Below the pieces are notes generated by a model. That model was not told the DNA's origin. It searched no databases and worked only from the letters and a program-made list of their open reading frames with translations. A program made the position numbers and the translations under genes. Positions 1,922 to 15,435 of a stretch of DNA of 21,554 nt are shown here, one piece after another (the stretch's first letter is position 1; every line of letters begins with the position of its first letter). The stretch comes from Potamolinea sp. (GTDB lineage: Bacteria; Cyanobacteriota; Cyanobacteriia; Cyanobacteriales; Coleofasciculaceae). The stretch lies in the NCBI GenBank assembly GCA_042408245.1, contig JAYFMV010000019.1, forward strand, positions 67,511 to 89,064, read 5' to 3'.

Positions 1922-3070
1922 TCAGCAGAATTTGACATAAGAGAGTAGCCTCGTTGAGCACTTAACAAGCTGAACTTTAGATACAGAAAATTGACCAATC
2001 CTGTGCCAGTTGATGTCATAAACAGAAACATTTTTTGTCTTAGCTGAATTGGTATAACCACCAATCCAGCCAGTATAAGACTGCCCCGCCTTTGAGGCGA
2101 TAGCGAAGCGCTGCTGCAAGCAGATCACCTTGTCTCCAGAACGCAACCCAAAAGGTGTAACGGTTCCACCCTTGCGTTTGCGGTGTTCTAGATGAGTGGG
2201 AGAGCCTTTAACTGGATTCTCGAAGTGCAATTGACGACGATACAACTGTGGTCTAGCTATGATGACAAACGGACATTTGGTTATCTCGATTTCCCCTAGC
2301 CAATGACCCCCACGAGCATTGTTACTTATCCAGTTTTGCCACTTAATGAAGTGGCTAGCAGCTAGAGTAAGACCATCGTGCGAGTGTGTTTCAGGAGTGG
2401 GATTAGCTTTATTGGTTTTATCTTTCGCCAACCCCAACCACTGCCGAAGATTGGAAGTTTGCCAACCTAATTGAGTGCTAGTTGGTTTAATTTCAGATAA
2501 CCACTCCACCATGATTTTCTGCCCAACCATTGCAGGTGAAAAGCTTTTACTACCCCGTGCTTCTATCCGCTCATAAATAATCTGAGATATGGGATAGAGC
2601 TTAAGTAGTTCTTTGACTACTCTTAACTCCATCTGTTTGTTCGCTCGGATACTGGGAACAAGCTTTCTTTGTCTGCGGTTGTCGAATCGCTTCTGACGAT
2701 GACAGCGTTGATTGTAGGGGAGTTTGCGATTAATTCTCCGTCCACGTCTGGCTCTTCGTAGTATCCGTCTTGTTGTCATCTTTTTGGTGACAGATTTAAA
2801 CGGTAACTGAAGATGAGCTTTGAATAGAGTTGCTTTTGTACTCTGTAGGCCAATGCCAGTAAAAAGTTTTCCTGGGTCGATACCAAGGGCAATGTCTTGG
2901 GTTTCTCTACCAGATGGCTCAGACAATAAACGGACTCCGTAAACCTCCAAATCATTGCGAACAGCAAGGGCTTTTCCTAATTTGATCCAGCGTCTAGCGC
3001 GACTGCTTTTGGTCGGCATGGCTGGAGTTCCGTCAGGATTTTGAACTGAAACTCTAATTGTGTTTGACAT
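1922..3070 (-). CDS. isrB: IsrB-like RNA-guided nickase homolog (IscB family lacking the HNH insertion), RuvC-like nuclease
   Basis: N-terminal PLMP-type motif (RVSVQNPDGTPAMPTKSSRARRWIKLGKALAV). RuvC-I motif ALGIDPG. Arginine-rich RRXRR bridge helix (RRILRRARRGRRINRKLPYNQRCHRQKRFDNRRQRK). RuvC-II motif around IIYERIEARG. RuvC-III-like HSHDGLTLAASH. There is no Cys/His HNH module between RuvC-II and RuvC-III. Length is about 380 aa. The ORF track extends the gene to a GTG at 3109; the ATG at 3070 (MSNTIRVSV...) is the more likely start. Confidence 0.7.
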   Translation of the reverse strand: MSNTIRVSVQNPDGTPAMPTKSSRARRWIKLGKALAVRNDLEVYGVRLLSEPSGRETQDIALGIDPGKLFTGIGLQSTKATLFKAHLQLPFKSVTKKMTTRRILRRARRGRRINRKLPYNQRCHRQKRFDNRRQRKLVPSIRANKQMELRVVKELLKLYPISQIIYERIEARGSKSFSPAMVGQKIMVEWLSEIKPTSTQLGWQTSNLRQWLGLAKDKTNKANPTPETHSHDGLTLAASHFIKWQNWISNNARGGHWLGEIEITKCPFVIIARPQLYRRQLHFENPVKGSPTHLEHRKRKGGTVTPFGLRSGDKVICLQQRFAIASKAGQSYTGWIGGYTNSAKTKNVSVYDINWHRIGQFSVSKVQLVKCSTRLLSYVKFC

Positions 3071-3300
3071 GGAGATAATCCTGTAAAACAGTTGTATGTT
3101 CCTTCCCACAATTCAGCTAGGATGTCCTTTCTACAAGCACTCTTAAACAAAGAGTTTGAACATAGTCCAATGAGAGGGAAACGAGCGGAAGTTCGTGCCT
3201 AACTAAATCTCATGTGGTAGACAAGAGTTACCCTTGAAAGTTGTTTCTTTCAAGCCCCTCCCTCAACGAAGTAGGGAGGGGTTCTTGACCTCTCAGCCTT
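3071..3300 (-). ncRNA. Candidate omega-RNA of the IsrB element, inferred by position only
   Basis: In IscB/IsrB systems the omega-RNA lies immediately upstream of the nuclease ORF and overlaps its 5' end, with the guide at the far upstream end. This 180-230 nt non-coding stretch carries two consecutive perfect hairpins on the isrB strand: CTTGAAAG-ttgttt-CTTTCAAG at 3233-3254 and CCCCTCCCT-caacgaagt-AGGGAGGGG at 3255-3281. No covariance model could be run. Confidence 0.3.
3233..3281. repeat. Two tandem perfect stem-loops (8 bp and 9 bp stems) at the isrB-proximal end; candidate left-end TnpA-recognition or omega-RNA structure
   Basis: cttgaaag ttgttt ctttcaag at 3233-3254. cccctccct caacgaagt agggagggg at 3255-3281. 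Confidence 0.6.
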
Positions 3301-6115
3301 TGAGTGGATAATTCTCTGCCAGAAAAGCTTCAGCATCAGCTTGATCATCAATCAACCCATCCAGCGTAGCCGCTAACAAAGCATCCAAGATTTGTCTGTA
3401 TTGGGGGCCAGGTTTATAACCCAACTGCTTAAGATCATTACCATTAAGCGGTAATTGAACATCCGTCAAAATACTGAAATATTCCCAAATCTTACGTCTT
3501 ACTGCTCTGGGACTCTTCACTGCGAGCAAAATCAAGGTGGATAACTTGTACTGACGCAGCAAGCGGACAATTTCACTCTTGAGCCCAGAAACTGAGAGAA
3601 ACTCTACCACTGACTCTTGTATTTGAGCTAATTGCTGGAGGCGCTCAATACTGTCCGATGGTAGCTGAAGATTTGTGGCCACCTTAGCACGTTCTTCAGG
3701 AGCGAGATAAGCAATTAATACTTCCAGCCGGATTTGCCAGTGTTCCAGAGTTTGCTCAGGGTCAAACCGTCGCAGCCAACGGTCAACTAAACGTACTTGC
3801 CACCATAGCTTTTCATCTAGCTTAAGAGTGAAATGGAGACAACGCAGCGCTCCCAAAGACGCCAGTAACTGCAAAGCTTTTTCCCAGTAAGGAGCCTGTA
3901 AAATATGTTTAAGTTCGGCTTTGAGTCTGGTTTGTAGTGCTGGTGCTTTAGCATTTGCCTTCATTGAGCGCTCGTAGACTCCACTTTCAAGCGCATAGCG
4001 GATATAAGCTTCGGTTTGAGGTTCAATTTGAAATCCCAAACGTACCGCAAAGCGCACAGCACGATAAATCCGGGTTGGGTCTTCGATAAAACTGTTAGCG
4101 TGGAGTACCCGAATTTGACGCGATCGCAAATCCAACAACCCCCCAAAAAAATCCATCAGAGGAAACGCCCAACCAAGGTCAGAAGTTAGTCGGACAGCCA
4201 AAGCATTAATGGTAAAATCTCGTCGATAAAGGTCTTGACGAATCGAACTGGCTTCAACTTCAGGATTAGCCGCAGGGTAGGGATAAAATTCTGTTCGTGC
4301 GGTGGCAATATCTATCCAGAGAGAGCCAAGAATGGGGTCATTGTGCCACAACAAGGCAGCAGTTTGAAAAGCCCCGTGAACGTCTAGACGGACGTTTGGG
4401 TAAATTTTCTGTAGCGCTTGGGCCAGTATTACTCCAGCACCAGTGTCTGCTGAACGATGAAAGCCATCTACTACCAAGTCAATATCTTTTAGAAAGACGT
4501 TATCAGAGCCTTCAACCAGCAATAAGTCTCTTACGGCTCCTCCTACCAAGTAAAGATGCCAGCCCCGTTCCTTGGCTTCCTGGGCGGCTTTGCTAAGCAA
4601 TTCTTTAAGGGGAGGAACCAAACGCTCCCGAAGATTCCGGATTGCTTCCCTAGAGATTGGAGGGGTGGAATCGGGACTGGGGATAGGACAAGAATCGAAT
4701 TGGGTCTCCTGTTGATGCAGTTGTCGCAACACGTCGGTGCGAGTCACAATTCCGACTAATTGCCCATTCTCTAAAACTGGTAGACGCCCAATATCGTATG
4801 TCACCATCAGCCACTGAAGATCTGGTAGAGGTGTCTGAGGAGTAATTGTTTTTAGATTTTTGGTCATGTAGCCTTTGACCGGCGCATGACCAAAACCGTG
4901 ATGTAGGGCTAAATCAATATCTCGTCGCGAGATAACTCCTACAAGTTGGTCGTTTTCGTCTACTACCGAAAGTCCTGAATGACCATACCGCAGCAATATT
5001 CTCTGTGCTTCGCTAATCGTGGTTTGGGGACGAATTGTGCGTACTGGTGAAGACATGAGTTCCCGTGCGGTTAAAGGTTGGGGAATTTGCTCTTTGAGTT
5101 GGTTAACTAGCTGTTCAAGGATTTGTGTGGGATTAACATCTCGGAGTCTCACTGCTGCTGCTTGGGAATGTCCCCCACCACCTAGGGGTTGCAGTAATTC
5201 GTTTAAATTTGTCCCTTCAATACGCGATCGCCCAATCACTGTCAAAAGTGACCCTGTTACCCTCTGAGAAATATTAGACACATTCTCCCGTGCTCCCCCA
5301 TCTCCCCTATCTCCCCCATCTCTCCCATCTCCCCCATCTCCCCCATCTCCCCCATCTCTCCCATCTCCCCCATACTCAGCGGCCAACAGCAGTGCATCAC
5401 TCTCAGTTAACTCAAGCAGTCGTGTCGCCAAACTGGATAACCCTGGTACGTAGTCATGGGTTTTGAGGATTACCCAGGAAACGGTGTAGCCTAAGTGAGT
5501 TTGTGACTGCAAGTTATGTAAGGCTTCGGTCAAAAGTTTTTGTAAGCGAGGAGACAGTCCAGGGTCAACGTATTCGGAGATTTGCCGCACGTTTGCTCCC
5601 TGTAGCATCAACCAAGCTAAAGCAGCAGCGTCTCTTGGTGTCGTCTGGTCAAAGGTCAGTGAACCTGTATCAACATGAATACCCAAGGCCATCACTGTTG
5701 CTTCTGCGATGGTCAAGGAGATTTCGCTTTGCTGCAACTGCTCAACAATTATGGTAGTTGTCGCTCCTACGGGTTCAATGTGAGTATGTGTAGCGGGAAT
5801 ATCTGTATGAATATCTAGGTGATGGTCGTAGATTTCAATTGAGGTTAACTGAGGTAAGTCTAACCACTGGGCTGCTTTTCCCAGGCGATCGCGCGATGAA
5901 GTATCTACTACAATCAGAGACTGAATCTGTTGGGAATTGACAGAGCGGCGTTCAATCAGCGCATACTCATCTCGATGCAATGCCAAAAAATCTCGAACAG
6001 CAGGATGAGCGCCACCAGTGAGAACTAATTTAGCTCCTGGTTTTAGGCACGTCAGCCCCACCGCTGCTCCCAAGGCGTCAAAGTCAGCCGTTGTATGACA
6101 CAAAATCAGATCCAT
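3293..6115 (-). CDS. Multidomain RNA-end enzyme: NrnA-like DHH/DHHA1 phosphoesterase, two CBS domains, and a class II nucleotidyltransferase (CCA-adding / poly(A) polymerase family)
   Basis: DHH motifs [15 protein letters not shown] and IEIYDHH. DHHA1 motif GGGH ([13 protein letters not shown]). A tandem CBS pair follows ([20 protein letters not shown]...[20 protein letters not shown]). The nucleotidyltransferase head carries [17 protein letters not shown] and [11 protein letters not shown] low-complexity [26 protein letters not shown] segment lies between DHH and DHHA1. Confidence 0.85.
5296..5373. repeat. In-frame tandem repeat of the 9-bp unit CCATCTCCC, about 8.5 copies with point variants, inside the DHH-nucleotidyltransferase gene
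   Basis: Direct reading gives ccatctccc ctatctccc ccatctctc ccatctccc ccatctccc ccatctccc ccatctctc ccatctccc. On the coding strand this encodes the (G-G-D/G-R-D)n linker. Because the unit length is a multiple of 3, copy-number changes preserve the reading frame. Confidence 0.9.
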
Positions 6116-6229
6116 CGTTCAAGCTTTGAGTACTTTTACCAACTGTAAGGAATCTGTAAGTCTGCGCTACGCACAGGAAAAAGGTTGTAGGAATACCGCT
6201 TTTCAGGCAGCAGCCTTTAACCATGAAGC

Positions 6230-7684
6230 TCACCCCACCTTTTTAGAGGTGGGGGTGTCTATGCTAAGAAAGGGACTGTTGAGGTTCCACAAATCACAAA
6301 GACAAGCCCAGCTTCTAGGCAAGCGTCCAGAATTTTTACTGGGGCGCTTCTCGTAGTCCTTTCGGCTATCGAGTTTAAGCCAACCTCTCGCGGCGATATT
6401 GTAAGACCCGTTCAGGTCGCAGTTGTAACGCTTCCCGCTAGAGAAAGTAGCTAATGCGTAATTCTTATTGTCGCGTTTCACTTTGCCCGACCCATCATAA
6501 GCAAGCTTTGAGGTATAGGCAGCAATCACGGTGATTGTTTTGCCGCCTAACTCAGCCCATTTACGTTGGGTCAGATCAACGATTAGGCTTTTGAGCCAAC
6601 CATGAAACCGTTGCTTCAGGTTAGATCGTTTCCTGCCTCCCTTTGGCTTCCAGCCTTTGAGATCCTCAAACACAATTGCGTCTGCACGCTCTGTCTGAGC
6701 AATCTGGGTAATGCGTTTAGAAACGGTATGCCCCATCTGTTGATTGATATTGCGACACTTGCGATAGGTGTTTTTGCAGAATCCTAACCCTAGTTTTCCG
6801 CCTTTCCCCATCGTCTTCTTAGCCCGTATCGAAACTGATTTCAGTCGCTTGTCGCGGCGGTCTATGTCTCTTCCAGGATGAATAAATTCACGATGGATTA
6901 CAGTACCGTCACGGCTCACCACTGAAACAGTAGCAGTCGTATTAATTCCTAAATCAACCGCCACAACCACGCCAGCCCCTTTCACCTTCTCAGGGTGGCA
7001 CTCAAAGGGAACCGACAAATGGCAAAATTTGTCGTTCACGATCAGCGAGGGTGATTTGATTTGATTGGTCGAAATCTTATGCCGTTCACGCCACGAAGCG
7101 ATAGGCATGGCGCTCCAAATCCAATCGGTTCCGGTAAACACTTTAATTTCGACTTGCTCGAATCCATGCAGCTTGAAACATTGCCCTTTGTACAGAGCAG
7201 GATAACAACCCGCACTACTATTGAGAATTGGGGGTTTTGCATCTCTACGGTTCCGACTTTGCCCAGACTGCCAATCCCGGTATCGAGTCATGTAGCTACT
7301 CACCTGTCCTGCTGCAAACATGATTGCAGCGCGGCGTAAATAGCTAGGGAACTTGTGAAACGCTCGGTTAATTTGAGGGTATTTCGGATGAGGATTCTTT
7401 GCGGTTCCATGTACCAATCTTTCGACGGCAGGAACGATATTATCACCGCTTAGATTCCCCAAATCAACCCAGTGGGTACAGATCACCGTCACCAAGAACC
7501 GACATAAACGGCGGTATTCCTGCACAGTGTTAAGCAGATATTGTCTCTGCTCACTGCTTGGGGCAATGCGCCACTTGTCGGTTCTGATAGCGCGAGCGGT
7601 AGCGACGTAGGAGCGTCTGGTTTTAGGTGCTGTTTTTTGTCCCATAGTATTTATAGTGTAGCGCATAGAGTAAAACCATGACAA
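6230..7684 (-). CDS. tnpB: TnpB-family RuvC-like protein (IS605 OrfB). The zinc-finger cysteines are absent. The start codon is uncertain: TTG at 7684, or ATG at 7666 or 7645.
   Basis: RuvC-I motif VVAVDLGINTTATV. RuvC-II motif AIVFEDLKG. YTS motif (AAYTSKLAY). RuvC-III motif CDLNGSYNIAARG. Where the two CxxC pairs are expected, the sequence reads LAYDGSG...FSSGKRYNCD. Divergently coupled to tnpA. Confidence 0.7.
   Translation of the reverse strand: MSWFYSMRYTINTMGQKTAPKTRRSYVATARAIRTDKWRIAPSSEQRQYLLNTVQEYRRLCRFLVTVICTHWVDLGNLSGDNIVPAVERLVHGTAKNPHPKYPQINRAFHKFPSYLRRAAIMFAAGQVSSYMTRYRDWQSGQSRNRRDAKPPILNSSAGCYPALYKGQCFKLHGFEQVEIKVFTGTDWIWSAMPIASWRERHKISTNQIKSPSLIVNDKFCHLSVPFECHPEKVKGAGVVVAVDLGINTTATVSVVSRDGTVIHREFIHPGRDIDRRDKRLKSVSIRAKKTMGKGGKLGLGFCKNTYRKCRNINQQMGHTVSKRITQIAQTERADAIVFEDLKGWKPKGGRKRSNLKQRFHGWLKSLIVDLTQRKWAELGGKTITVIAAYTSKLAYDGSGKVKRDNKNYALATFSSGKRYNCDLNGSYNIAARGWLKLDSRKDYEKRPSKNSGRLPRSWACLCDLWNLNSPFLSIDTPTSKKVG
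6231..6257. repeat. Subterminal hairpin at the tnpB-proximal end (right end) of the IS605-type element
   Basis: caCCCCACCT ttttag AGGTGGGGgtg. It overlaps the last codons of tnpB (...TPTSKKVG*) and is the same motif as at 8115-8138. Confidence 0.65.
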
Positions 7685-8097
7685 GAAGCTTAAGAGCTTT
7701 TGCTCACAGCTATTGCAGTATTCAGATTCATATGGTGTTTGTTACAAAGTATCGTCACCCCGTCTTGACTGAGCAGATAGAGTCTGACATCATCCAACTG
7801 TGTCGAGGGATCTGCGAAAAAAACCGTTCTTACCTCGTAGAAGCAAAAGCAGATTTAGAGATGAAAGACCATATCCATTTGTTAATAGACTTTGCGCCTG
7901 ATGTCTCTGTGTCGAAGCTGGCTAACACAATGAAGACCGTTACCAGTCGTGAGATTCGGAAGCGTTTTGCAACTGAACTGAAACCTTATTACTGGAAACC
8001 TGTTTTTTGGAAGCGCGGCTATTGTGCTGTTTCTGGGGGTGGCGCAACGCTTGAGGTTATTAAGTCCTATATCCAATCTCAGGGTAAGGACGACTAG
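7678..8097 (+). CDS. tnpA: IS200/IS605-family Y1 (HUH) transposase TnpA
   Basis: 139 aa. IHMVFVTKYRHPVL. HUH motif HIHLLI. C-terminal catalytic tyrosine context WKRGYCAVSGGG...IKSYIQSQ. The size and motif order match IS200 TnpA. Confidence 0.85.
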   Translation: MTRSLRAFAHSYCSIQIHMVFVTKYRHPVLTEQIESDIIQLCRGICEKNRSYLVEAKADLEMKDHIHLLIDFAPDVSVSKLANTMKTVTSREIRKRFATELKPYYWKPVFWKRGYCAVSGGGATLEVIKSYIQSQGKDD

Positions 8098-8114
8098 ATC
8101 CGGTGTTCGGCTAA

Positions 8115-8138
8115 CCCCCACCTGTTCCGAGGTGGGGG
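8115..8138. repeat. Subterminal hairpin at the tnpA-proximal end (left end) of the IS605-type element
   Basis: CCCCCACCT gttccg AGGTGGGGG, a perfect 9-bp stem. Same motif and orientation as at 6231-6257. Confidence 0.65.
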
Positions 8139-8307
8139 AGTGCGCCTCACTTGAAGTTCAACAAAGCTGGCCTGTAACAGACTTGGTAATTTCAGCAAAA
8201 GCGGGTCAAATTTTGGTAGCGTACTAAACAGGAAAGATTTAATATCAGCCCCGAATTGGGCTGAATATTTTCTATCGATTTTTACGCTTGTCTTGGGAGA
8301 ATAGTAA

Positions 8308-8496
8308 ATGACCATCATATTTCAAATAGCGCTCGCGGCTCTGGTTGCCTTGTCATTCGTCATGGTTGTCGGTGTCCCCGTCGCCTACGCATCCCCTCAA
8401 AACTGGTCTCAATCGAAAAATTTGATTTTCTTGGGTTCTGGGGTTTGGGCTGCTCTTGTCATTCTAGTTGGCGTCTTGAATTTTTTGGTGGTTTAG
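8308..8496 (+). CDS. psbZ: Photosystem II reaction-centre protein Z
   Basis: 62 aa: [62 protein letters not shown]. Two transmembrane helices and the conserved [10 protein letters not shown] / LIFLGSG core. An SD-like GGGAGA sits 9 nt upstream. Confidence 0.9.
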
Positions 8497-8509
8497 AGTG
8501 ACTACTCCT

Positions 8510-8536
8510 GCACTAAATGCTTAGGCATTATAGTGC
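8510..8536. repeat. Near-perfect palindrome centred on the stop codon of the solo tnpB, 14 nt after the psbZ stop
   Basis: GCACTAAATGC ttag GCATTaTAGTGC. Candidate right-end or omega-RNA 3' hairpin of the solo tnpB element, or the psbZ 3' stem-loop, or both. Confidence 0.5.
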
Positions 8537-9786
8537 AGGCTTCCCAGATCGCTATTGGATATTGCTGCCCTACGCCACTTATCTAGGCTCATCACCCCCG
8601 ACAGCCCGACATGAGTGCCAATTTCTTTCCCCCAAAGTCCTTGGGTACTCAGTTGCTCATAACCTCGGTTACAGATTTCCTGTGCCGAGACTACATCTCT
8701 ATCAGCTTCGTAACCACATTCTGGGCAACTATGCCATCGCTCTTTCAGTTCTTTCCTGACTTCAATGCGGCAATTTGGACAAGTCTGAGACGTTCCTTTG
8801 TGGTTGACCTCGGCAACATATACACCTCGCTGTTTACCCACATAAGAAAGGATAGTTCTGAACTGTCCAAAGGCTGCATCAATGGTGTGCTTACCTAAAA
8901 AGCCCTTTGCCATGATTCGGAAATCGATATCTTCCACGAAGATGGTATCAGCCATGTCACACAATTTGTGAGCCAATTTGAACTGATAGTCTTTACGTTT
9001 GAAGGCAATGTGGTTATGTTGACGCTCTACCTTGAGCCTAACTTTCTCATAGTTTTTAGAGCGCTTCTTCTTTTTCGACAGTCTGCGTTGTAGCACTTTC
9101 AGCCGACGATGCTCTGTGGCAAAGAATTTACGCCCTGGCTCAATGAATCCTTCACTGGTCGCTAGATAATTATTCAACCCAACATCCACCCCAATCAAGT
9201 GTCCGTGAGGCATGGGAGCGGGGATAGAGAGATCAGAATGAATGCTGATTACAGCAAACCAGCCCATTGCTTTTTTGAGTATCCTGACTTGTTTGACTAC
9301 AAACCCTTCTGGGATTGGTCGATGCAAGTTGATTTGAACTTTCCCCAGTTTGGGTAACTTGATTTGCCACCCTGTAATTGGATTAGTGGAAAACTGAGGA
9401 AAAAGTATCGACTTCCAGAGTCCATACTTCTTGAATCTCGGAAATCCATAACCCCTTTTCTGGAAAAAGTCCCAGGAATCATGCAATCTTCTAATCGTTG
9501 TTTGCAACACCTGAGAAGGCACTGCTGCTAGTCGCGGAAAGTCCTTTTTAGCTTTGGGGAGATTGTTTTGCTGCTGATGGTATCCAGGAAAAGGATAGTC
9601 AGCACTCATGATGTACTCTGACTCCAAACTACAGCTATCTATTGGACACTTCCTAGAAGCAATCCAGTCCTTTAGTTCCCTGAGTGCATAGTTATACGCA
9701 TGACGACAAGTTTCAAGCCATTCGTTCAGTAACTCGACTTGCTGCTCATCGGGTATTAGGCGGTAGGTGTAGTTGAGAGTTATCAT
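8521..9786 (-). CDS. tnpB: Canonical TnpB (IS605 OrfB / IS1341-like) RNA-guided nuclease family protein. Solo, with no tnpA.
   Basis: N-terminus YRLIPDEQQVELLNEWLETCRHAYNYAL. RuvC-I motif LIGVDVGLNNYLATS. RuvC-II motif TIFVEDIDF. Intact zinc finger TSQTCPNC...WHSCPECG. RuvC-III motif ADRDVVSAQEICNRG. Confidence 0.85.
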   Translation of the reverse strand: MITLNYTYRLIPDEQQVELLNEWLETCRHAYNYALRELKDWIASRKCPIDSCSLESEYIMSADYPFPGYHQQQNNLPKAKKDFPRLAAVPSQVLQTTIRRLHDSWDFFQKRGYGFPRFKKYGLWKSILFPQFSTNPITGWQIKLPKLGKVQINLHRPIPEGFVVKQVRILKKAMGWFAVISIHSDLSIPAPMPHGHLIGVDVGLNNYLATSEGFIEPGRKFFATEHRRLKVLQRRLSKKKKRSKNYEKVRLKVERQHNHIAFKRKDYQFKLAHKLCDMADTIFVEDIDFRIMAKGFLGKHTIDAAFGQFRTILSYVGKQRGVYVAEVNHKGTSQTCPNCRIEVRKELKERWHSCPECGYEADRDVVSAQEICNRGYEQLSTQGLWGKEIGTHVGLSGVMSLDKWRRAAISNSDLGSLHYNA

Positions 9787-9857
9787 GGTTTAATCTTACC
9801 ACTACTAGCAACAATGGTAAATGCTAATTTTACCGGGATTGACCGGATAAAATTAGC

Positions 9858-9954
9858 TTGGGGGGTGGCTGTATCCCACCGCTAAAATATCAAAAGCAAC
9901 GACTTCTTCGTTTTGAATCGCCCTGATTTATAGCGGGGGACTTATCCACCCCCC
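9858..9954. repeat. Palindromic MITE-like element with an 11-bp perfect terminal inverted repeat (TTGGGGGGTGG / CCACCCCCCAA), extended imperfectly to about 25 bp
   Basis: ttggggggtggctgtatcccaccgct ...47 nt... agcgggggacttatccaccccccaa. The centre contains its own small hairpin AACGA-cttct-TCGTT. It lies 70 nt upstream of the solo tnpB start and could be the left end of that element. Confidence 0.5.
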
Positions 9955-10028
9955 AAACCCCCCATTAAGTTAAAAGGGTAATCGGCACCAAAGTTTTTAA
10001 CTTTGCCTGCTTTCGGTACGGAGTCAAC

Positions 10029-10120
10029 CAACAAGCTTAAGGATTGCAACCGCTCAATCCAGTATTCAATAAGTTGGTTGACTGTTTTTTCCAACTTATG
10101 CGTAATCCTTAAGCTTGTTG
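10029..10120. repeat. 17-bp perfect inverted repeat (CAACAAGCTTAAGGATT / AATCCTTAAGCTTGTTG) flanking a 58-nt core that contains the hairpin GTTGG-ttgactgtttttt-CCAAC
   Basis: Direct reading of the sequence. No ORF. Sits in the long spacer between tnpB and ribH. Confidence 0.55.
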
Positions 10121-10573
10121 TATCGAGGTTCGGAAAGCTCAACAAAAATTGATTTTTCCTGCATAAATGCATCCAGAATAATAGTGATATATTATATGCT
10201 ATATTACTCACTGGTCGTTGACCTGCCTGACCGACTAAAGGGCTCTTGAAGTACTAGCGATAGATCAGGGAAAAAACCTCCCCATTTGATAGTCATTGCC
10301 CAAGTCCAAGGGATGTTGTACCAATGAAAATCAAACTGCCTTTGGAAGGAGGGCGGCTGCCAGGGTAACATCATGGGGTGTTGCAGGAGTTCGGGTCACA
10401 GTGCGTGCCTCAAACCTCCGGAGGACGAGTCAGACTCAAAGCTGATTTAGTTCGGAATTCCTAGCAAGAGGAATCCCTAACAGAGCATCGACCTGTGAAA
10501 CTGGAAGCTCCCGCTATAACGGTGCGACCTTGAGCGGTGAGTGCTTCAATATTAACAATTTCACACGACAGAC

Positions 10574-11179
10574 ATGGCAGTTTTCGAGGGCAACTTTACT
10601 TCATCAACACCTCTGCGGTTTGCGATCGTCATCGGTCGCTTTAATGACTTAGTGACGGACAAACTTTTAGCAGGGTGTCAAGATTGCTTGAAGCGCCACG
10701 GTGTTGATGTTAATCCCCACGGCACTCAAGTTGACTATATTTGGGTGCCTGGTAGTTTTGAGGTGCCGATGCTGGCTCGCCAAGCAGCGCTCAGCCGTCG
10801 TTATGATGCTGTGATTTGCCTTGGTGCCGTCATCCGAGGTCAAACACCTCATTTTGATTATGTCGCTGCTGAAGTCTCCAAGGGGATCGCAGCGGTTGGC
10901 ATGGAAACTGGCGTGCCAGTAATTTTTGGTATTGTGACAACGGATACCATGCAGCAAGCTCTGGAACGTGCGGGCATCAAGAGTAATAAGGGTTGGGAGT
11001 ATGCTATTAATGCCTTAGAAATGGCAAGTTTAATGCAGCAGTTTAAGGGCAACCGAGCAGCCTCAGCTTACAATGCCTATGAAACTGGTGCCGTGACTAC
11101 CCAAGCTCTGCCAATTCCCGCGAATCGGACGCTGGTTTCAGAGTCAACGGTTGAACATACAGAGGCTACTAATTCTTGA
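10574..11179 (+). CDS. ribH: 6,7-dimethyl-8-ribityllumazine synthase, with a C-terminal extension of about 40 aa
   Basis: MAVFEGNF...[19 protein letters not shown], then VPGSFEVP and the rest of the lumazine-synthase core. An extra Ala/Thr-rich tail follows the conserved domain. Confidence 0.9.
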
Positions 11180-11265
11180 TTCCCTCAAAGGACACTCATC
11201 AACGGATATTTTTGTCAACTGTTGATTGACGCCTGTACCATTAGCTGAAAACTTGCAAACAACAG

Positions 11266-11306
11266 TTGACAAATTTTTAGAGTTCTGAGAGTATAGATAT
11301 TAATGC
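11266..11306 (+). promoter_or_regulatory. Possible sigma70-type promoter for tRNA-Gly: TTGACA at 11266-11271 with AT-rich -10 candidates (TATAGA / TATTAAT) ahead of the tRNA 5' end
   Basis: The consensus -35 hexamer is clear. The spacing to the best -10 candidates is 18-25 nt, so the exact -10 box is ambiguous. Confidence 0.25.
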
Positions 11307-11312
11307 AGTGAT

Positions 11313-11384
11313 GCGGGTATAGCTCAGTGGTAGAGCGTCACCTTGCCAAGGTGAATGTCGCGCGTTCGAATCGCGTTACCCGCT
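11313..11384 (+). tRNA. tRNA-Gly (anticodon GCC)
   Basis: A cloverleaf was folded by hand. Acceptor stem GCGGGTA/TACCCGC. D arm GCTC-AGTGGTA-GAGC. Anticodon stem TCACC/GGTGA with loop TTGCCAA. T arm GCGCG-TTCGAAT-CGCGT. Discriminator T. No encoded CCA. Confidence 0.9.
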
Positions 11385-11590
11385 TAAGTAACATAAAAAT
11401 ACCAGTTTTACCCAGACGAAAACCGCTGTAATCAAGCAAACAGCGAGCTTGAGTTTGAGGAAATGCCGAACAGAGATTGGTGAAGATCAAGGAAAGCGCT
11501 AATATATAAAAAAATGGGCGCTTACTGTACATCGCCAAAAACGGGGTCTGGGACGCTGCTCCCGCCGTAAGGCTTTTCCATCACACTAGC

Positions 11591-12076
11591 GTGAGTGACA
11601 AACCTTACGACGTATGTTTTGTAGATAATCTTTGCTTGAAGTATTTTGTTCATGAAATAGCGCTTGTGCCATCTCAGAAAACTCAGAAAATTGACTTAAA
11701 TACTGAGTACCCCTGTCCTTGTAGGCGTCGGGGAGCTTTAGTACCGATTACACTGACAGAAGCATTTGGCTGCAATCGCTGTCAGCAAATTTTCGTTGTC
11801 GAAGAAAGTGGGTATGTGATTGAGCAACTGTCCACAAGCTACCCCTACAAAAAAGCTTGGCGTTGGACAGGCCATCGGTGGAGTACGGCAAATTCTAGTC
11901 TTGGAGAAAGTTATCTTCCCATAGCGCTGGGAATTGTCTTCGTGCTGCTGATTTTCTGGCTACCGTTGGCCCTGCGCTCTCCCACAGGACTAAGCAACAT
12001 TATTCTCTGGACATTGCTGGCCGTGCTGCTAGCTTTGCTCCCAGCGTTAATGGTCTGGCTAACTTACCGACGTTAG
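11591..12076 (+). CDS. Hypothetical protein with an N-terminal zinc-ribbon-like region (CPC...CNRC) and two C-terminal transmembrane helices
   Basis: 161-aa ORF ending 7 nt before the proA-like start. EYPCPCRRRG...FGCNRCQQIF. Hydrophobic segments LPIALGIVFVLLIFWLPLAL and IILWTLLAVLLALLPALMVWL. Confidence 0.5.
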   Translation: MSDKPYDVCFVDNLCLKYFVHEIALVPSQKTQKIDLNTEYPCPCRRRGALVPITLTEAFGCNRCQQIFVVEESGYVIEQLSTSYPYKKAWRWTGHRWSTANSSLGESYLPIALGIVFVLLIFWLPLALRSPTGLSNIILWTLLAVLLALLPALMVWLTYRR

Positions 12077-12082
12077 CAGAAT

Positions 12083-13351
12083 ATGGAAATCGACGCTTGT
12101 AGCTTTGCGCTTAACCCGACTGATGCTGTGAGTCGTGCTTATCAGGCTTCTCTGGCTCTAGCAACTACCAACGGAATAGACCGCTCTCGTGGCGTCCAAG
12201 CGATGGCGCAGGCGCTGCAAAAATCCTTTGATGATATTTTGGAGGCCAACACCCTAGATTTAGAAGCAAGCCGAGAAATGGCTGTGCCAGAGCTAGTTTG
12301 GGAGTGGCTAAAGCTGACACCAGAGCGCCTTCAAACCACCATCCAGATCTTACAAAGAATTGGCGAATTATCAGATCCGATCCGGCGGGTGATGAACGCC
12401 TCTTATCAACTTGAACACTCTCAGACTTACGCTCAATTGATGCCACTGGGAGTAATTGCTTTAATTTATGAGGCATTTCCAGAGTTGGGGGCGATCGCTG
12501 CTGGTTTTTGTATCAAGACTGGCAATAGCCTAATTCTCAGAGGAGGTAGCGAAGCCAGTCAATCTAACCAGGTAATTGCCAAAGCCTTACAAACTGCACT
12601 CGATGAAGCTGGTTTGCCAGTGGGATGCTTGGAACTATTGCCATCAGAACAGGGTACTTCGATTCGAGATTTAGTCACTCAAGATCGATATCTAAGTCTG
12701 GTTATTCCCTATGGACGACCAACGCTAGTCCAGCAGGTGACGCAGCAAGCAACGGCACCCATTTTGAGGTCGGCAATGGGCAACTGTTACCTTTACTGGT
12801 CTGGCACTGGTAGTTTGGGAATGGTAACTTCGGTGATTTTAGACAGTCACGCTAGCGAACCAGACCCCGTGAATGCGATTGAAAAAATTCTCATCAGTCG
12901 CTTGTCAAAGCCTTCTTCCTTGGTAATTTTGTGGAAAAGCCTCAAGGAAAAAGGCTTTAAACTTAGAGGCGATGCTGAGCTAGTGGCTGAATTTCCCGAA
13001 TATTTGACCTTGGCTACAGATGCTGAGTGGAACCAACCTTATCTTGATAAGATTGTGGCTTTTAAAGTAGTAGACACTCTCGAAGAGGCGATCGCCTGGA
13101 TGAACCACTACAGTAGCGGTCATGCTGATTGCATTGTCACCGAGTCTTACCAAGAAAGTCGCCAGTTTGCTTTAGGTGTCGATAGCGCTTCAGTTTACAT
13201 TAATTCCTCGCCGCGATTTTCACGCAACCCAAAACGGGGAGATGCAGTTTTTCTGGGGATGTGTAATCAGAAAGGATATCGTCGGGGGATGATTAGCCTT
13301 GAGACGCTAACGACACTCAAACAGGTTGTGCAGGGAAATGGAAAATATTAA
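12083..13351 (+). CDS. Gamma-glutamyl phosphate reductase (ProA) family protein; probable non-catalytic paralog with Val in place of the nucleophilic Cys
   Basis: Collinear with ProA along the whole length: PLGVIALIYEA, KTGNSLILRGG, GNCYLY (ProA GVCHIY), HADCIV (ProA HSDAIL), VDSASVYINSSPRF and LETLTTLK. At the TCNAxETLLV active-site motif the protein reads DPVNAIEKILI: P, N, E and LL[IV] are conserved but Cys is replaced by Val. Confidence 0.75.
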   Translation: MEIDACSFALNPTDAVSRAYQASLALATTNGIDRSRGVQAMAQALQKSFDDILEANTLDLEASREMAVPELVWEWLKLTPERLQTTIQILQRIGELSDPIRRVMNASYQLEHSQTYAQLMPLGVIALIYEAFPELGAIAAGFCIKTGNSLILRGGSEASQSNQVIAKALQTALDEAGLPVGCLELLPSEQGTSIRDLVTQDRYLSLVIPYGRPTLVQQVTQQATAPILRSAMGNCYLYWSGTGSLGMVTSVILDSHASEPDPVNAIEKILISRLSKPSSLVILWKSLKEKGFKLRGDAELVAEFPEYLTLATDAEWNQPYLDKIVAFKVVDTLEEAIAWMNHYSSGHADCIVTESYQESRQFALGVDSASVYINSSPRFSRNPKRGDAVFLGMCNQKGYRRGMISLETLTTLKQVVQGNGKY

Positions 13352-13591
13352 TTAGTTATTGGTTCTTGATTGTGTAGGCTATATTTTGCCAAAATCATGA
13401 TTTAACTCAGAGCATCCCCATCTGATTATAGCTAAAATTAGTGTAAAAAAATAGACACAAAATAGCCCATCTCTGAAAAGACGTATTTGCGTTCAATAAA
13501 TGAATTCATTCTCAATAATCTTGAGAATACCCCCCTTTTATTGAGAAAATTCTAGTTATACAAAAATTTACGCGGTTTTTACAAAAGTTTG

Positions 13592-13629
13592 CAAAAAACA
13601 GGACAGGGGGGAACCCTGTCCTGCAAAAA
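13592..13629 (-). terminator. Intrinsic terminator for the minus-strand small ORF
   Basis: 10-bp GC-rich stem CAGGACAGGG / CCCTGTCCTG with a GGGAA loop. On the minus strand the stem is followed immediately by TTTTTTG. Confidence 0.45.
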
Positions 13630-13728
13630 CAACTAATAAGATCATGTCCAACTGCATCGGTATTATCAGCTCAGACAGCAGGAGCCTCACCCCATAATCG
13701 CTTCGATTTGGTGTGAGAGGAATGCGAG

Positions 13729-13899
13729 TCAAAGGAAGGGGTTCAATACCCCTTTCTTTGACATTTTCTTGGCTAGAGTTCGCAGGTAATCTCTAAACAC
13801 GTCATTCTGGGTTCTGGCGGTCATCTCGCAGTATTGTCGCCACACTTCTTTTTCTTCCGGGGTGAGGCGAAAGTTAACATTTTCGGTAAGTTTTGCCAT
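13729..13899 (-). CDS. Small ribbon-helix-helix (CopG/Arc-like) DNA-binding protein, 56 aa; below the ORF-track length cutoff
   Basis: Translates as MAKLTENVNFRLTPEEKEVWRQYCEMTARTQNDVFRDYLRTLAKKMSKKGVLNPFL. The beta-strand (VNFRLT) plus two helices match the RHH signature. ATG at 13899, stop at 13729-13731. The start lies 35 nt from the divergent tnpB-like start. The terminator sits about 100 nt downstream. Confidence 0.5.
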   Translation of the reverse strand: MAKLTENVNFRLTPEEKEVWRQYCEMTARTQNDVFRDYLRTLAKKMSKKGVLNPFL

Positions 13900-13933
13900 T
13901 ACTTTGTATTTGATATTCCATTACAATAGTGAC

Positions 13934-15298
13934 ATGAAATACACTTACCAGTACAAGGCGCTTCCCACAACCGAACAGAAGCTAGAGTTGAATCTCTGGC
14001 GGCGAACCTGCCAGTACTGGTATAATCGCCAACTCGGAGATCGCGTTATGTGGTGGGACTCAAACCGCACACCTGTTGACGCTTGCCCACTGGTGGCGAC
14101 GCTGCCAGAACTTCGTGACCAACCCAACTACTACAGCCAGAAAAAGTATCTACCAGGACTCAAGAAAGAACCTGTATTAGTGGAGTGGTCTGGGGAAAAG
14201 TTAGACTTATCAAGAGTTCCAGCAAACACGTTACAGGAAGTCTGTAAACGAGTTGACTTGGCCTTCCAACGATTTACCGCAGGTGATACAAGCGGAAACC
14301 GAAGCGGCAGACCCCGCTTCAAGTCACAATCTCGCTATCGTTCATTTGTGATTGAAGGCGCCTCTTTGGATCTATACTCTTGCTCAATTGGCGGCAAGTT
14401 CCTGTACATTAAGGTGCCAAAGATTGGTGTCGTCAAAATTCGTTCTCATCGGCATTTGCCTGATGGTGCAGTTCTCAAGCAATTGCAGTTCATCAAGAAC
14501 AATGATGGCTGGTTCGTTAATCTTCGGTTGGAAGATCCAACTGTTCCCATTTGCACCAATGACATCATTCCCACTTGGGAAAACTCGCTGGGCATGGACG
14601 CTGTGCTGCATGAAGAAGATTACCTAGCAACCAGTGAGAATACCAAGCTTCCCTCCCTGAAGGTGTTGAGGAAAAGCCAGCACAAACTAACTCACGTTTC
14701 CTCAAAAAAGAACGCCCGAAAGCGCGGCTCTAAGGCACGTCGAAAGCTGGCGAAAAGAGAGGGCAAACTGCATCAAAAGATTGCCAGACATCGTAAAAAT
14801 TTCCACTACAAAACCGCCCATAAATTGTTGAGAACGGGCAAGAAAGTTTTCTTCCATGAAGACCTCAACCTAAAAGGTCTGTCAAGGCGCAACGCCCCCA
14901 AACAAGACGAAACTGGGGCATACATACCGAATGGACAGTCTGCCAAGTCGGGACTCAATATGAGTTGGTCTGATGCTGCCTTCGGTCAATTCTTTCAAAT
15001 CCTCGGTCACATAGCTGGAAAAGCTGGAGCCGTAGTGATACCGAAGAATCCCGCTTATACCTCCCAACTCCTTGCTTATCGAGATGAAGTGATCTTCATC
15101 GACTGTGGCATTCGCCAGTATTGGGATGAGCTAGAAAATCTCTGGGTTGATCGTGACGTTAATGCTGCGATCAATGTTCTGAGAGTGGGGCTGGACGTGT
15201 TCCCCACTATAAAACGCCGTAAAGGTGGAATAGTAATAGTCGGTTCTATCACTAAAGATACCTCCAAGGAAGTTCTACGCATTCTCCGGAGTGCTTGA
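13934..15298 (+). CDS. tnpB: TnpB-family RuvC-like protein (IS605 OrfB) with the zinc finger degenerated
   Basis: N-terminus MKYTYQYKALPTTEQKLELNLWRRTCQYWYNRQLGDR. RuvC-I motif SLGMDAVL. RuvC-II motif KVFFHEDLNLKG. YTSQ motif. RuvC-III motif DRDVNAAINVL. The CxxC...CxxC pairs are replaced by LAYRDE...FIDCGIRQ. The ORF-track start at 13862 is a GTG extension that overlaps the divergent RHH ORF; the ATG at 13934 is in frame and fits the family N-terminus. Confidence 0.75.
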   Translation: MKYTYQYKALPTTEQKLELNLWRRTCQYWYNRQLGDRVMWWDSNRTPVDACPLVATLPELRDQPNYYSQKKYLPGLKKEPVLVEWSGEKLDLSRVPANTLQEVCKRVDLAFQRFTAGDTSGNRSGRPRFKSQSRYRSFVIEGASLDLYSCSIGGKFLYIKVPKIGVVKIRSHRHLPDGAVLKQLQFIKNNDGWFVNLRLEDPTVPICTNDIIPTWENSLGMDAVLHEEDYLATSENTKLPSLKVLRKSQHKLTHVSSKKNARKRGSKARRKLAKREGKLHQKIARHRKNFHYKTAHKLLRTGKKVFFHEDLNLKGLSRRNAPKQDETGAYIPNGQSAKSGLNMSWSDAAFGQFFQILGHIAGKAGAVVIPKNPAYTSQLLAYRDEVIFIDCGIRQYWDELENLWVDRDVNAAINVLRVGLDVFPTIKRRKGGIVIVGSITKDTSKEVLRILRSA

Positions 15299-15302
15299 GA
15301 AG

Positions 15303-15335
15303 CCTACACCAACCTGATTACAGGTATGGTGTAGG
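15303..15335. repeat. Perfect 9-bp stem hairpin with a palindromic loop, 5 nt after the tnpB-like stop; candidate right-end or omega-RNA structure
   Basis: CCTACACCA acctgattacaggta TGGTGTAGG. The loop is itself palindromic (ACCTG/CAGGT). Confidence 0.5.
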
Positions 15336-15435
15336 AGCGTCACGAAAGGTAATTGGTAGTTAAGTTGTACTCATCAGCCATTACTTATTACCCATTACCC
15401 ACTCTTCAACAACGAAGCCAAAGGACTTAATATAA

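Follow-up and report, generated by a model that had tools for sequence, protein, structure and literature searches.

Within a 21,554-nt stretch of a contig from a metagenome-assembled genome (MAG) of the cyanobacterium Potamolinea sp., three TnpB-like open reading frames (ORFs) lie between 6.2 and 15.3 kb: A and B on the minus strand, and C on the plus strand. This stretch is referred to here as the window, and all coordinates are window positions. Two of the three proteins, A and C, are best read as ordinary, functional, transposon-encoded TnpB RNA-guided nucleases whose target-nucleic-acid-binding (TNB) module lost its zinc cysteines long ago and is now metal-free. From the sequence comparisons set out below, we put the probability of this reading at roughly 80%. 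We infer RNA-guided cleavage, the identities of the transposon-associated motifs (TAMs), and the absence of bound zinc for both proteins. The principal features are the following.

6224-8155, minus strand: element A, a complete IS605-type insertion sequence (IS) with right end, tnpB, divergent tnpA, and left end, delimited by blastn and flank comparison.
6230-7645, minus strand: tnpB-A, zinc-finger-less, PF27142 'Aq_aa04' family, 471 aa from the ATG at 7645.
8498-9786, minus strand: right part of element B, consisting of tnpB-B (8521-9786, with CPNC...CPEC) and the right end, which stops at 8498.
13672-15343, plus strand: element C, a non-autonomous IS605-type element with left end, ribbon-helix-helix (RHH)/Arc-like gene, tnpB, and right end; no tnpA.
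13934-15298, plus strand: tnpB-C, zinc-finger-less, 'typical' DRDxN type, starting at the ATG at 13934 and 454 aa long, with the Zn-free TNB segment YTSQLLAYRDEVIFIDCGIRQYWDELENLWVDRD.

The CCCC zinc finger in the TNB insert is present only in B and is gone from A, C, and all relatives examined. The D-E-D triad of the split RuvC-like domain is present in canonical motifs of all three proteins. Protein B (421 aa) scores 273 bits with the NCBIfam model guided_TnpB (cut-off 100), aligns over its full length to ISDra2 TnpB, and has the triad D201, E285, D364 and the zinc ligands C336, C339, C354, and C357. The triad of protein C, composed of D222 (14597-14599), E309 (14858-14860), and D408 (15155-15157), aligns with that of B, and C reaches 158.5 bits with guided_TnpB, above the cut-off of 100. 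When C was compared with B by hhalign (probability 99.9%, 32% identity), CPNC lay opposite L-A-Y plus a gap, and CPEC lay in a gap. Protein A has its triad at D231 (6953-6955), E327 (6665-6667), and D410 (6416-6418). When the A-family profile is aligned with the solved TnpB 9nzp and with OsCas12f, VAVDLG, IVFE(D/N)L, and N(C/A)DLN fall on the catalytic motifs; a single-sequence phmmer search of A against the PDB gave only a marginal match. In the profile alignment, TSKLAYDGSG of A faces TSQTCCKCG, and TFSSGKRYNCD faces ECKLCGNKMNAD, so all four cysteines are replaced in A. The initial annotation of this DNA had described CPNC...CPEC in B, no zinc finger in A and C, and RuvC catalytic residues kept in both, and this description holds; alignment recovered no Zn ligands in A or C. 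Its gene locations stand as well, and its sizes are revised: C has 454 rather than 455 aa, and A is likelier to have 471 than 484 aa because homologues begin at the ATG at 7645. The 484-aa form would use an alternative TTG start at 7684, giving triad numbers of D244, E340, and D423.

The loss extends over entire families. For each protein, ~2,000 or more homologues are detectable, nearly all of them cyanobacterial. Family alignments were built of 121 sequences each for A and C (66-93% identity). Zinc ligands are missing in 121/121 sequences of each alignment, no CxxC pair is present, and the zinc-finger columns are without Cys or His in both, save one partly conserved Cys in C. The RuvC-III Asp is retained in 120 of 121 sequences in the A family and 118 of 121 in the C family, and the triad is invariant or nearly so. 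Among genomic copies of the C family (53-84% identity), 38 of the 38 that were readable carry PAYTSQLL(S/A)YRDE..F.D..IR.YWD....VDRD.NA and no ligands. A search of 1.84 billion representatives with the A-family profile returned 1,758 clusters, 235 of them at E<=1e-30. Of the best 150, 93 are full-length; these representatives of 50%-identity clusters were taken as a set for the superfamily of A (PF27142). No member of this set has two CxxC motifs, 89 keep D-E-D, and all share TS..A(F/Y)DGSG.V.R...F..GK.Y.(C/A)DLNA.YNI.

The ratio of nonsynonymous to synonymous substitution rates (dN/dS), calculated pairwise, is 0.07-0.10 in A and 0.06-0.10 in C, and, wherever an estimate of dS was possible, values in the zinc-free segment are comparably low. 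Because the absence is family-wide and dN/dS is low, the loss of the zinc finger is a family trait and not decay. The cysteine-less genes could still be taken as decaying relics without protein function, since fragments or truncated copies occur in some genomes (L039, L056, L061-L073). However, the ORFs are intact and full-length in most loci, more than 100 columns are invariant in the families at 66-93% identity, and the superfamily comprises 1,758 representative clusters. With dN/dS of 0.06-0.10 in addition, the selection and conservation data effectively refute this explanation, and hardly any weight is left to it.

Zinc could also be held by other ligands at a relocated or non-canonical site. 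In the cyanobacterial A subfamily, C160, C169, C229, C303, C310, H361, and C461-x-C463 (484-aa numbering) are near-invariant, and within the superfamily a cysteine stands at the A412 position in 58/93 representatives and before the catalytic Asp in 43/93. However, none of the A-subfamily cysteines is conserved over the 93 representatives, which makes a family-wide site unlikely, and the window protein A itself has Ala at 412. The C-terminal tail of A is disordered in its structural model and overlaps the predicted ωRNA, and conservation there may be at the nucleotide level. Cysteines in the TNB of the C family are scattered and number no more than one or two. A relocated site is thus rated as quite unlikely, and a metal-free TNB remains the preferred reading.

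Zinc-finger loss in A and in C is independent and old because the two families have different RuvC-III motifs: N(C/A)DLN in A, of the 'derived' NADxN type, and DRDVN in C, of the 'typical' DRDxN type. These two motif types define the 'derived' and 'typical' major TnpB clades of Altae-Tran et al. (2023, PMC10691335). An hhalign comparison of the A family with the C family gave no match, and comparison of A with B gave a weak one (probability 38%); A and C have no detectable similarity beyond the fold. This agrees with the initial annotation, which had proposed three distinct TnpB lineages and a loss either convergent or ancient in two subfamilies. The element B right end is composed of GAAGCC, a hairpin, and GGAGTAGTCAC, and ends at 8498, 2 bp beyond the psbZ stop codon. 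Its architecture (8498-8545) is shared with C (15298-15343), with GAAGCC, a hairpin, and GGAG-N-GTCAC in both and proteins that are 32% identical. The shared right end suggests that B and C belong to a single IS lineage and that the loss of the zinc finger took place inside it, and the 32% identity of C to B fits the annotation's proposal as well.

Both families are found in mobile elements. The blastn similarity of element A to five independent relatives ends at 6223/6224 and ~8162, and its right end lies just 7 bp beyond the tnpB-A stop codon. Its remaining parts are the following.

7678-8097, plus strand: tnpA of element A, encoding a 139-aa Y1 (HUH) transposase and separated by 32 bp from the divergent tnpB-A.
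8114-8161, minus strand: left end of element A, with a subterminal hairpin at 8114-8141 and the candidate TAM TTGAAC at 8156-8161, located by repeat search and flank alignment.

The tnpA product matches Pfam Y1_Tnp (E 1e-35) and NCBIfam transpos_IS200 (125.8 bits). A divergent tnpA stands 31-32 bp upstream of tnpB in several relatives (L074-76, L087/88); solo copies also occur. With an intact tnpA of its own, element A could be autonomous. The left-end hairpin at 8114-8141 is 85% identical to the right-end hairpin at 6233-6258. TTGAAC is kept in 12 of 13 left-end flanks of the A family (TTGAAG in the other), and the sequence upstream is unrelated. All A-family copies end in GAGCTTCA, beyond which 44 distinct 3' flanks follow. 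Approximately 20 metagenome contigs start or end within the last 100-900 nt of an A-family element (L104-L149; Ga0209207, Ga0116211, OGCL01). They have near-identical right ends and different flanks. These contig breaks suggest multiple copies in those metagenome populations and imply that an A-family element of high copy number has recently been active there.

Element C differs in having no transposase gene of its own. By blastn against 70 loci, it begins at ~13663-13666 and ends at ~15343-15346, and its left end contains the hairpin CCTCACCCC...GGTGTGAGG. Two further features are the following.

13666-13671, plus strand: candidate TAM of element C, TCAGCT, from left-flank alignment.
13729-13899, minus strand: RHH (Arc-like) ORF of 56 aa, divergent from tnpB-C across a 34-bp spacer, at the position of tnpA in related copies.

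Of 15 aligned left flanks of the C family, 13 have TCAGCT next to the element (the others have TGAGCT and TTAGCT), and upstream sequences are unrelated. The left hexamer of the HK-05 group of this family is CTAGCT. At the right end, 49 copies terminate in GAAGCC, a hairpin, and GAG..GT(T)CAC, either GTCAC or GTTCAC, and the sequence beyond is unrelated in all. The RHH ORF is intact (43-77 aa) in 24 loci, the window and 23 relatives (L001-L003, L006, L008-L012, L015-L019, L036, L046, L062, L063, L068-L070, L072, L073), and tnpA occupies the same position in 27 loci. Its three sequence variants have the common pattern (V/I)N(F/I)R(L/V)...Y C...R..(T/S/N)(D/E)(V/L)...(F/Y/L)(I/L)R.L. The Pfam matches of the ORF are weak (RHH_1, NikA-like, DUF6290). 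Arc repressors of IS605 promoters have been described (Moon et al., bioRxiv 10.64898/2026.09.24.754181), and the 56-aa ORF probably corresponds to this 'Arc' promoter repressor. Element C resembles the Arc-containing IS605 elements in carrying a small RHH gene within the IS beside the divergent tnpB promoter region. Arc in those systems is usually found alongside tnpA, whereas in the window and its 23 relatives the RHH gene is in the place of tnpA. The element C gene may accordingly be a repressor, and since it stands in place of tnpA, element C would need TnpA in trans.

The initial annotation had suggested that A and C might have domesticated, non-transposing roles. The families were searched by a genome scan with C (73 loci) and by exact-protein look-ups and a metagenome scan with A. 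In Scytonema sp. HK-05, four C-family copies are 99.9% identical over 2,028 bp; each has a divergent 137-aa Y1 tnpA and tnpB, and one of them (L029) interrupts a short-chain dehydrogenase gene. More than 40 different insertion sites were found per family, and the genes around A- and C-family loci are not conserved between loci. Multicopy genes with IS ends were seen, and single-copy genes with conserved neighbours were not. The suggestion is not borne out, because IS ends, a TnpA partner, many unrelated sites, multiple copies, and a structured 3' RNA speak for mobility. Both A and C are, on these sequence grounds, IS200/IS605 elements, and their families are large, conserved, and still mobile.

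What could be said for domestication, with A, C, or both as non-transposing TnpB derivatives such as TldR-like regulators, is that element C in the window is without tnpA and has a DNA-binding RHH gene, and that A-family copies in some cases stand alone between closely spaced genes (e.g., L085/86). Known TldRs reportedly have inactivated RuvC sites. In A and C, however, the catalytic triad is invariant, and IS ends and TAM-like hexamers are present on both elements. Unrelated insertion sites number in the dozens, some copies are identical and recent, neighbouring genes vary, and orthologous single-copy loci with conserved synteny across genera were not seen. Domestication is therefore very improbable. 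A few A- and C-family genes (P0031, P0054, L020, L042) are found in MAGs labelled Aeromonas, Shewanella, or Chloroflexaceae, on short contigs that are otherwise cyanobacterial-like. These occurrences are probably due to binning contamination and not to horizontal transfer.

The 3' ends of both elements have a predicted RNA structure that is mostly inside the 3' coding region and stops at the element boundary.

6224-6403, minus strand: predicted ωRNA scaffold of element A, almost wholly within the 3' end of tnpB-A.
6208-6223, minus strand: inferred 16-nt guide of the element A ωRNA, the flank directly 3' of the right end, unrelated between copies.
15144-15343, plus strand: predicted ωRNA scaffold of element C, with four helices, among them a stem capped by a UUCG/UCCG tetraloop and, at the terminus, the hairpin CCTACACC...GGTGTAGG.
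15344-15359, plus strand: putative 16-nt guide of the element C ωRNA; each of the 49 copies examined has a different sequence beyond GTCAC.

The terminal hairpin of element A, with the arms CACCCCCACCTC and GGTGGGGTG around a loop, overlaps the tnpB-A stop codon and covaries. RNAalifold of the last 180 nt of 27 A-family members gave 40 pairs, 17 of which have compensatory changes. Over the last 200 nt of the C family, 87.5% of sequence-by-pair cells are paired, compared with 36-46% in slid controls. Compensatory changes are present in 22 of 31 pairs of this region, and 0 of 500 shuffles reach its covariation score. The structured 3' ends of A and C match the ωRNA arrangement known from TnpB, with the flanks as putative guides. 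Identical short insertions are found within the ωRNA region of distant C-family copies: GTTCGCGCAGCGTCTCCCCTTGGGAG is shared by L036 (4237-4436) and L059 (4239-4438), and GGCTGCGCCACGCTGCGCGAA by L002 (4233-4432) and L006 (4230-4429). They have the appearance of small repeat elements that were inserted secondarily.

A mechanism for A and C can be proposed because of their analogy with characterised TnpBs. Each element would be transcribed through the 3' end of tnpB, and the structured 3' part that ends at the right end, together with ~16 nt of flank, would form the ωRNA. The TnpB-ωRNA complex would recognise the TAM and the flank that are recreated upon excision by TnpA. The intact RuvC D-E-D would then cut this TAM-plus-flank site, and recombination with a sister copy would restore the element.

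Several observations count against reading A and C as ordinary, active TnpBs. Protein A scores 66.1 bits with guided_TnpB (E 3e-18), below the cut-off of 100, and 59 bits with Cas12f2, also below the cut-off; no TnpB/Cas12 model of NCBIfam is matched by A above its curated cut-off. Support for A comes instead from its predicted fold and from the profile match to the TnpB 9nzp. The AlphaFold2 model of C, built from a 56-sequence alignment, has a predicted local distance difference test score (pLDDT) of 45 and is unusable for a structural statement. The corresponding model of A reaches a pLDDT of 74.6, and its top Foldseek match is AsCas12f (E 3e-13), followed by Cas12g, ISFba1 TnpB, and ISDra2 TnpB. 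The TNB segment of this model consists of three short beta-strands at a pLDDT of only ~50-70, a low-confidence picture of what takes the place of the zinc knuckles. In addition, the multicopy evidence rests on the genomes of relatives rather than on the Potamolinea sp. source genome, and multicopy spread is no proof of an active nuclease because TnpB is dispensable for transposition.

That a zinc site is unnecessary for RuvC cleavage in this superfamily is supported by Cas12a and Cas12b. The Nuc domains of these active nucleases occupy the equivalent insert between RuvC-II and RuvC-III and have no zinc site. As CRISPR effectors, Cas12a and Cas12b are far larger than A and C, and their REC and Nuc domains are expanded. 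The TNB of ISDra2 TnpB is a 33-residue CCCC module (C331, C334, C351, C354) located far from the heteroduplex (PMC10097598), and this distance is consistent with remodelling of the TNB being tolerable. Altae-Tran et al. (PNAS 2023, PMC10691335; SI Fig. S3C,D) describe some large TnpB branches as having lost the C4 zinc finger, which is thus dispensable across whole branches, and propose lineage-specific roles for it, including stabilisation and ion-dependent modulation.

Protein C is otherwise similar to ISDra2 and other 'typical' TnpBs. The domain order, including an N-terminal HTH_OrfB_IS605, the D-E-D triad, and DRDxNAA are the same, as are the Y1 TnpA of related copies, the end hairpins, and an ωRNA that overlaps the 3' end of the gene. 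C is unlike ISDra2 TnpB in having the aromatic/charged YRDE..F.D..IR.YWD instead of CCCC and a ~20-residue insertion after RuvC-II, and the window copy also differs in its Arc-like RHH gene instead of tnpA. Protein A is closer to the 'derived' TnpB/Cas12f-like proteins, given its N(C/A)DLN at RuvC-III and best fold matches to AsCas12f, OsCas12f, Cas12g, and ISFba1 TnpB. Its homologues are annotated as PF27142 'Aq_aa04' and weakly as OrfB_IS605, with the NCBI name 'TnpB-related'. Unlike Cas12f, it has no CRISPR array and lies within an IS605 element with a divergent tnpA, and unlike both Cas12f and TnpB its TNB zinc finger is replaced by DGSG...GK.Y. Both proteins resemble zinc-finger-less TnpB branches such as RIIIr-4 in showing clade-wide loss in predicted-active TnpBs. 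In RIIIr-4 (PMC10691335), RuvC-III is rearranged, with Asp changed to His; the branch is linked to RHH/MazE and occurs in archaea and viruses. The canonical Asp is present in both A and C, which hence are not RIIIr-4.

It has also been considered that a zinc-free TNB alters nucleic-acid handling and that A and C are functionally distinct variants. The change could concern the cleavage pattern, collateral single-stranded DNA cleavage (lost or gained), or the dependence on unwinding; a further option is redox- or metal-independent stability suited to oxygenic cyanobacteria. The replacement motifs are strongly conserved, A(F/Y)DGSG.V.R...F..GK.Y in the A superfamily and YRDE..F.D..IR.YWD in the C family, which suggests a selected alternative structure, and the ~20-residue insert after RuvC-II in the C family, seen by hhalign against B, points the same way. 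The lineage-specific zinc-finger roles proposed in PMC10691335 would also fit. However, in sequence data a change of function looks no different from a neutral replacement of structure. The ends, TAM, ωRNA, and TnpA are the same as in zinc-finger-bearing TnpBs, and B, with the zinc finger, and C, without it, have right ends of the same architecture. Altered handling is on balance unlikely, and the zinc-free TNB is probably a structural replacement. An adaptive role of the zinc-free modules, whether in independence from zinc supply, insensitivity to thiol oxidation in oxygenic phototrophs, or altered substrate loading and collateral cleavage, is similarly doubtful. If it were true, these proteins would represent natural, compact TnpB scaffolds that are metal-independent and biochemically distinct.

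The window further contains ribH, proA, a fatty-acid desaturase gene, fabF, and psbZ, genes that mark it as cyanobacterial, and protein C is 100% identical to a protein from a Potamolinea sp. MAG.

8308-8496, plus strand: psbZ (Ycf9), Pfam E 5e-31, between elements A and B.

Because the right end of element B adjoins the psbZ stop codon, the predicted ωRNA guide of B would be antisense to the psbZ 3' end. Upstream of tnpB-B, a perfect 17-nt inverted repeat (CAACAAGCTTAAGGATT / AATCCTTAAGCTTGTTG) is present at 10029-10045 and 10104-10120 around short broken ORFs. The possibility that this region (9942-10164) holds a frameshifted RHH gene was dropped, as a virtual fusion gave no RHH match. A fourth OMEGA-type gene within these 21.5 kb (1922-3109, minus strand) encodes a 395-aa, HNH-less, IscB-like (IsrB-like) protein. 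It has a RRXRR/PLMP-type N-terminus (Pfam RRXRR E 2e-42), scores 89 bits with NCBIfam guided_IscB against a cut-off of 175, and has no HNH match. No HEARO/ωRNA Rfam match was found near this gene, even at E<=1, and the sole match in an Rfam scan of the window was a tRNA. No CRISPR array was found by a repeat search of the window or among the called genes around relatives. A 9-nt tandem repeat with nine copies of CTCCCCCAT (5293-5373) lies within a 940-aa CBS/polyA-polymerase-like gene and encodes a GDGGDGRDG low-complexity stretch.

Loss of the zinc finger at the clade level was already noted in 2023, and A and C are members of this known phenomenon; the remainder is standard IS200/IS605 biology. 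No new category is opened by these proteins, and their chief value is clarification. Mobile TnpBs that look active are not defined by having a zinc finger, and two independent, large, and strongly constrained families reveal what can substitute for it. A and C are natural test cases for the contribution of the TNB zinc finger to stability, metal and redox sensitivity, and substrate loading. They offer compact, cysteine-poor scaffolds with the predicted TAMs TTGAAC and TCAGCT and defined predicted ωRNA boundaries.

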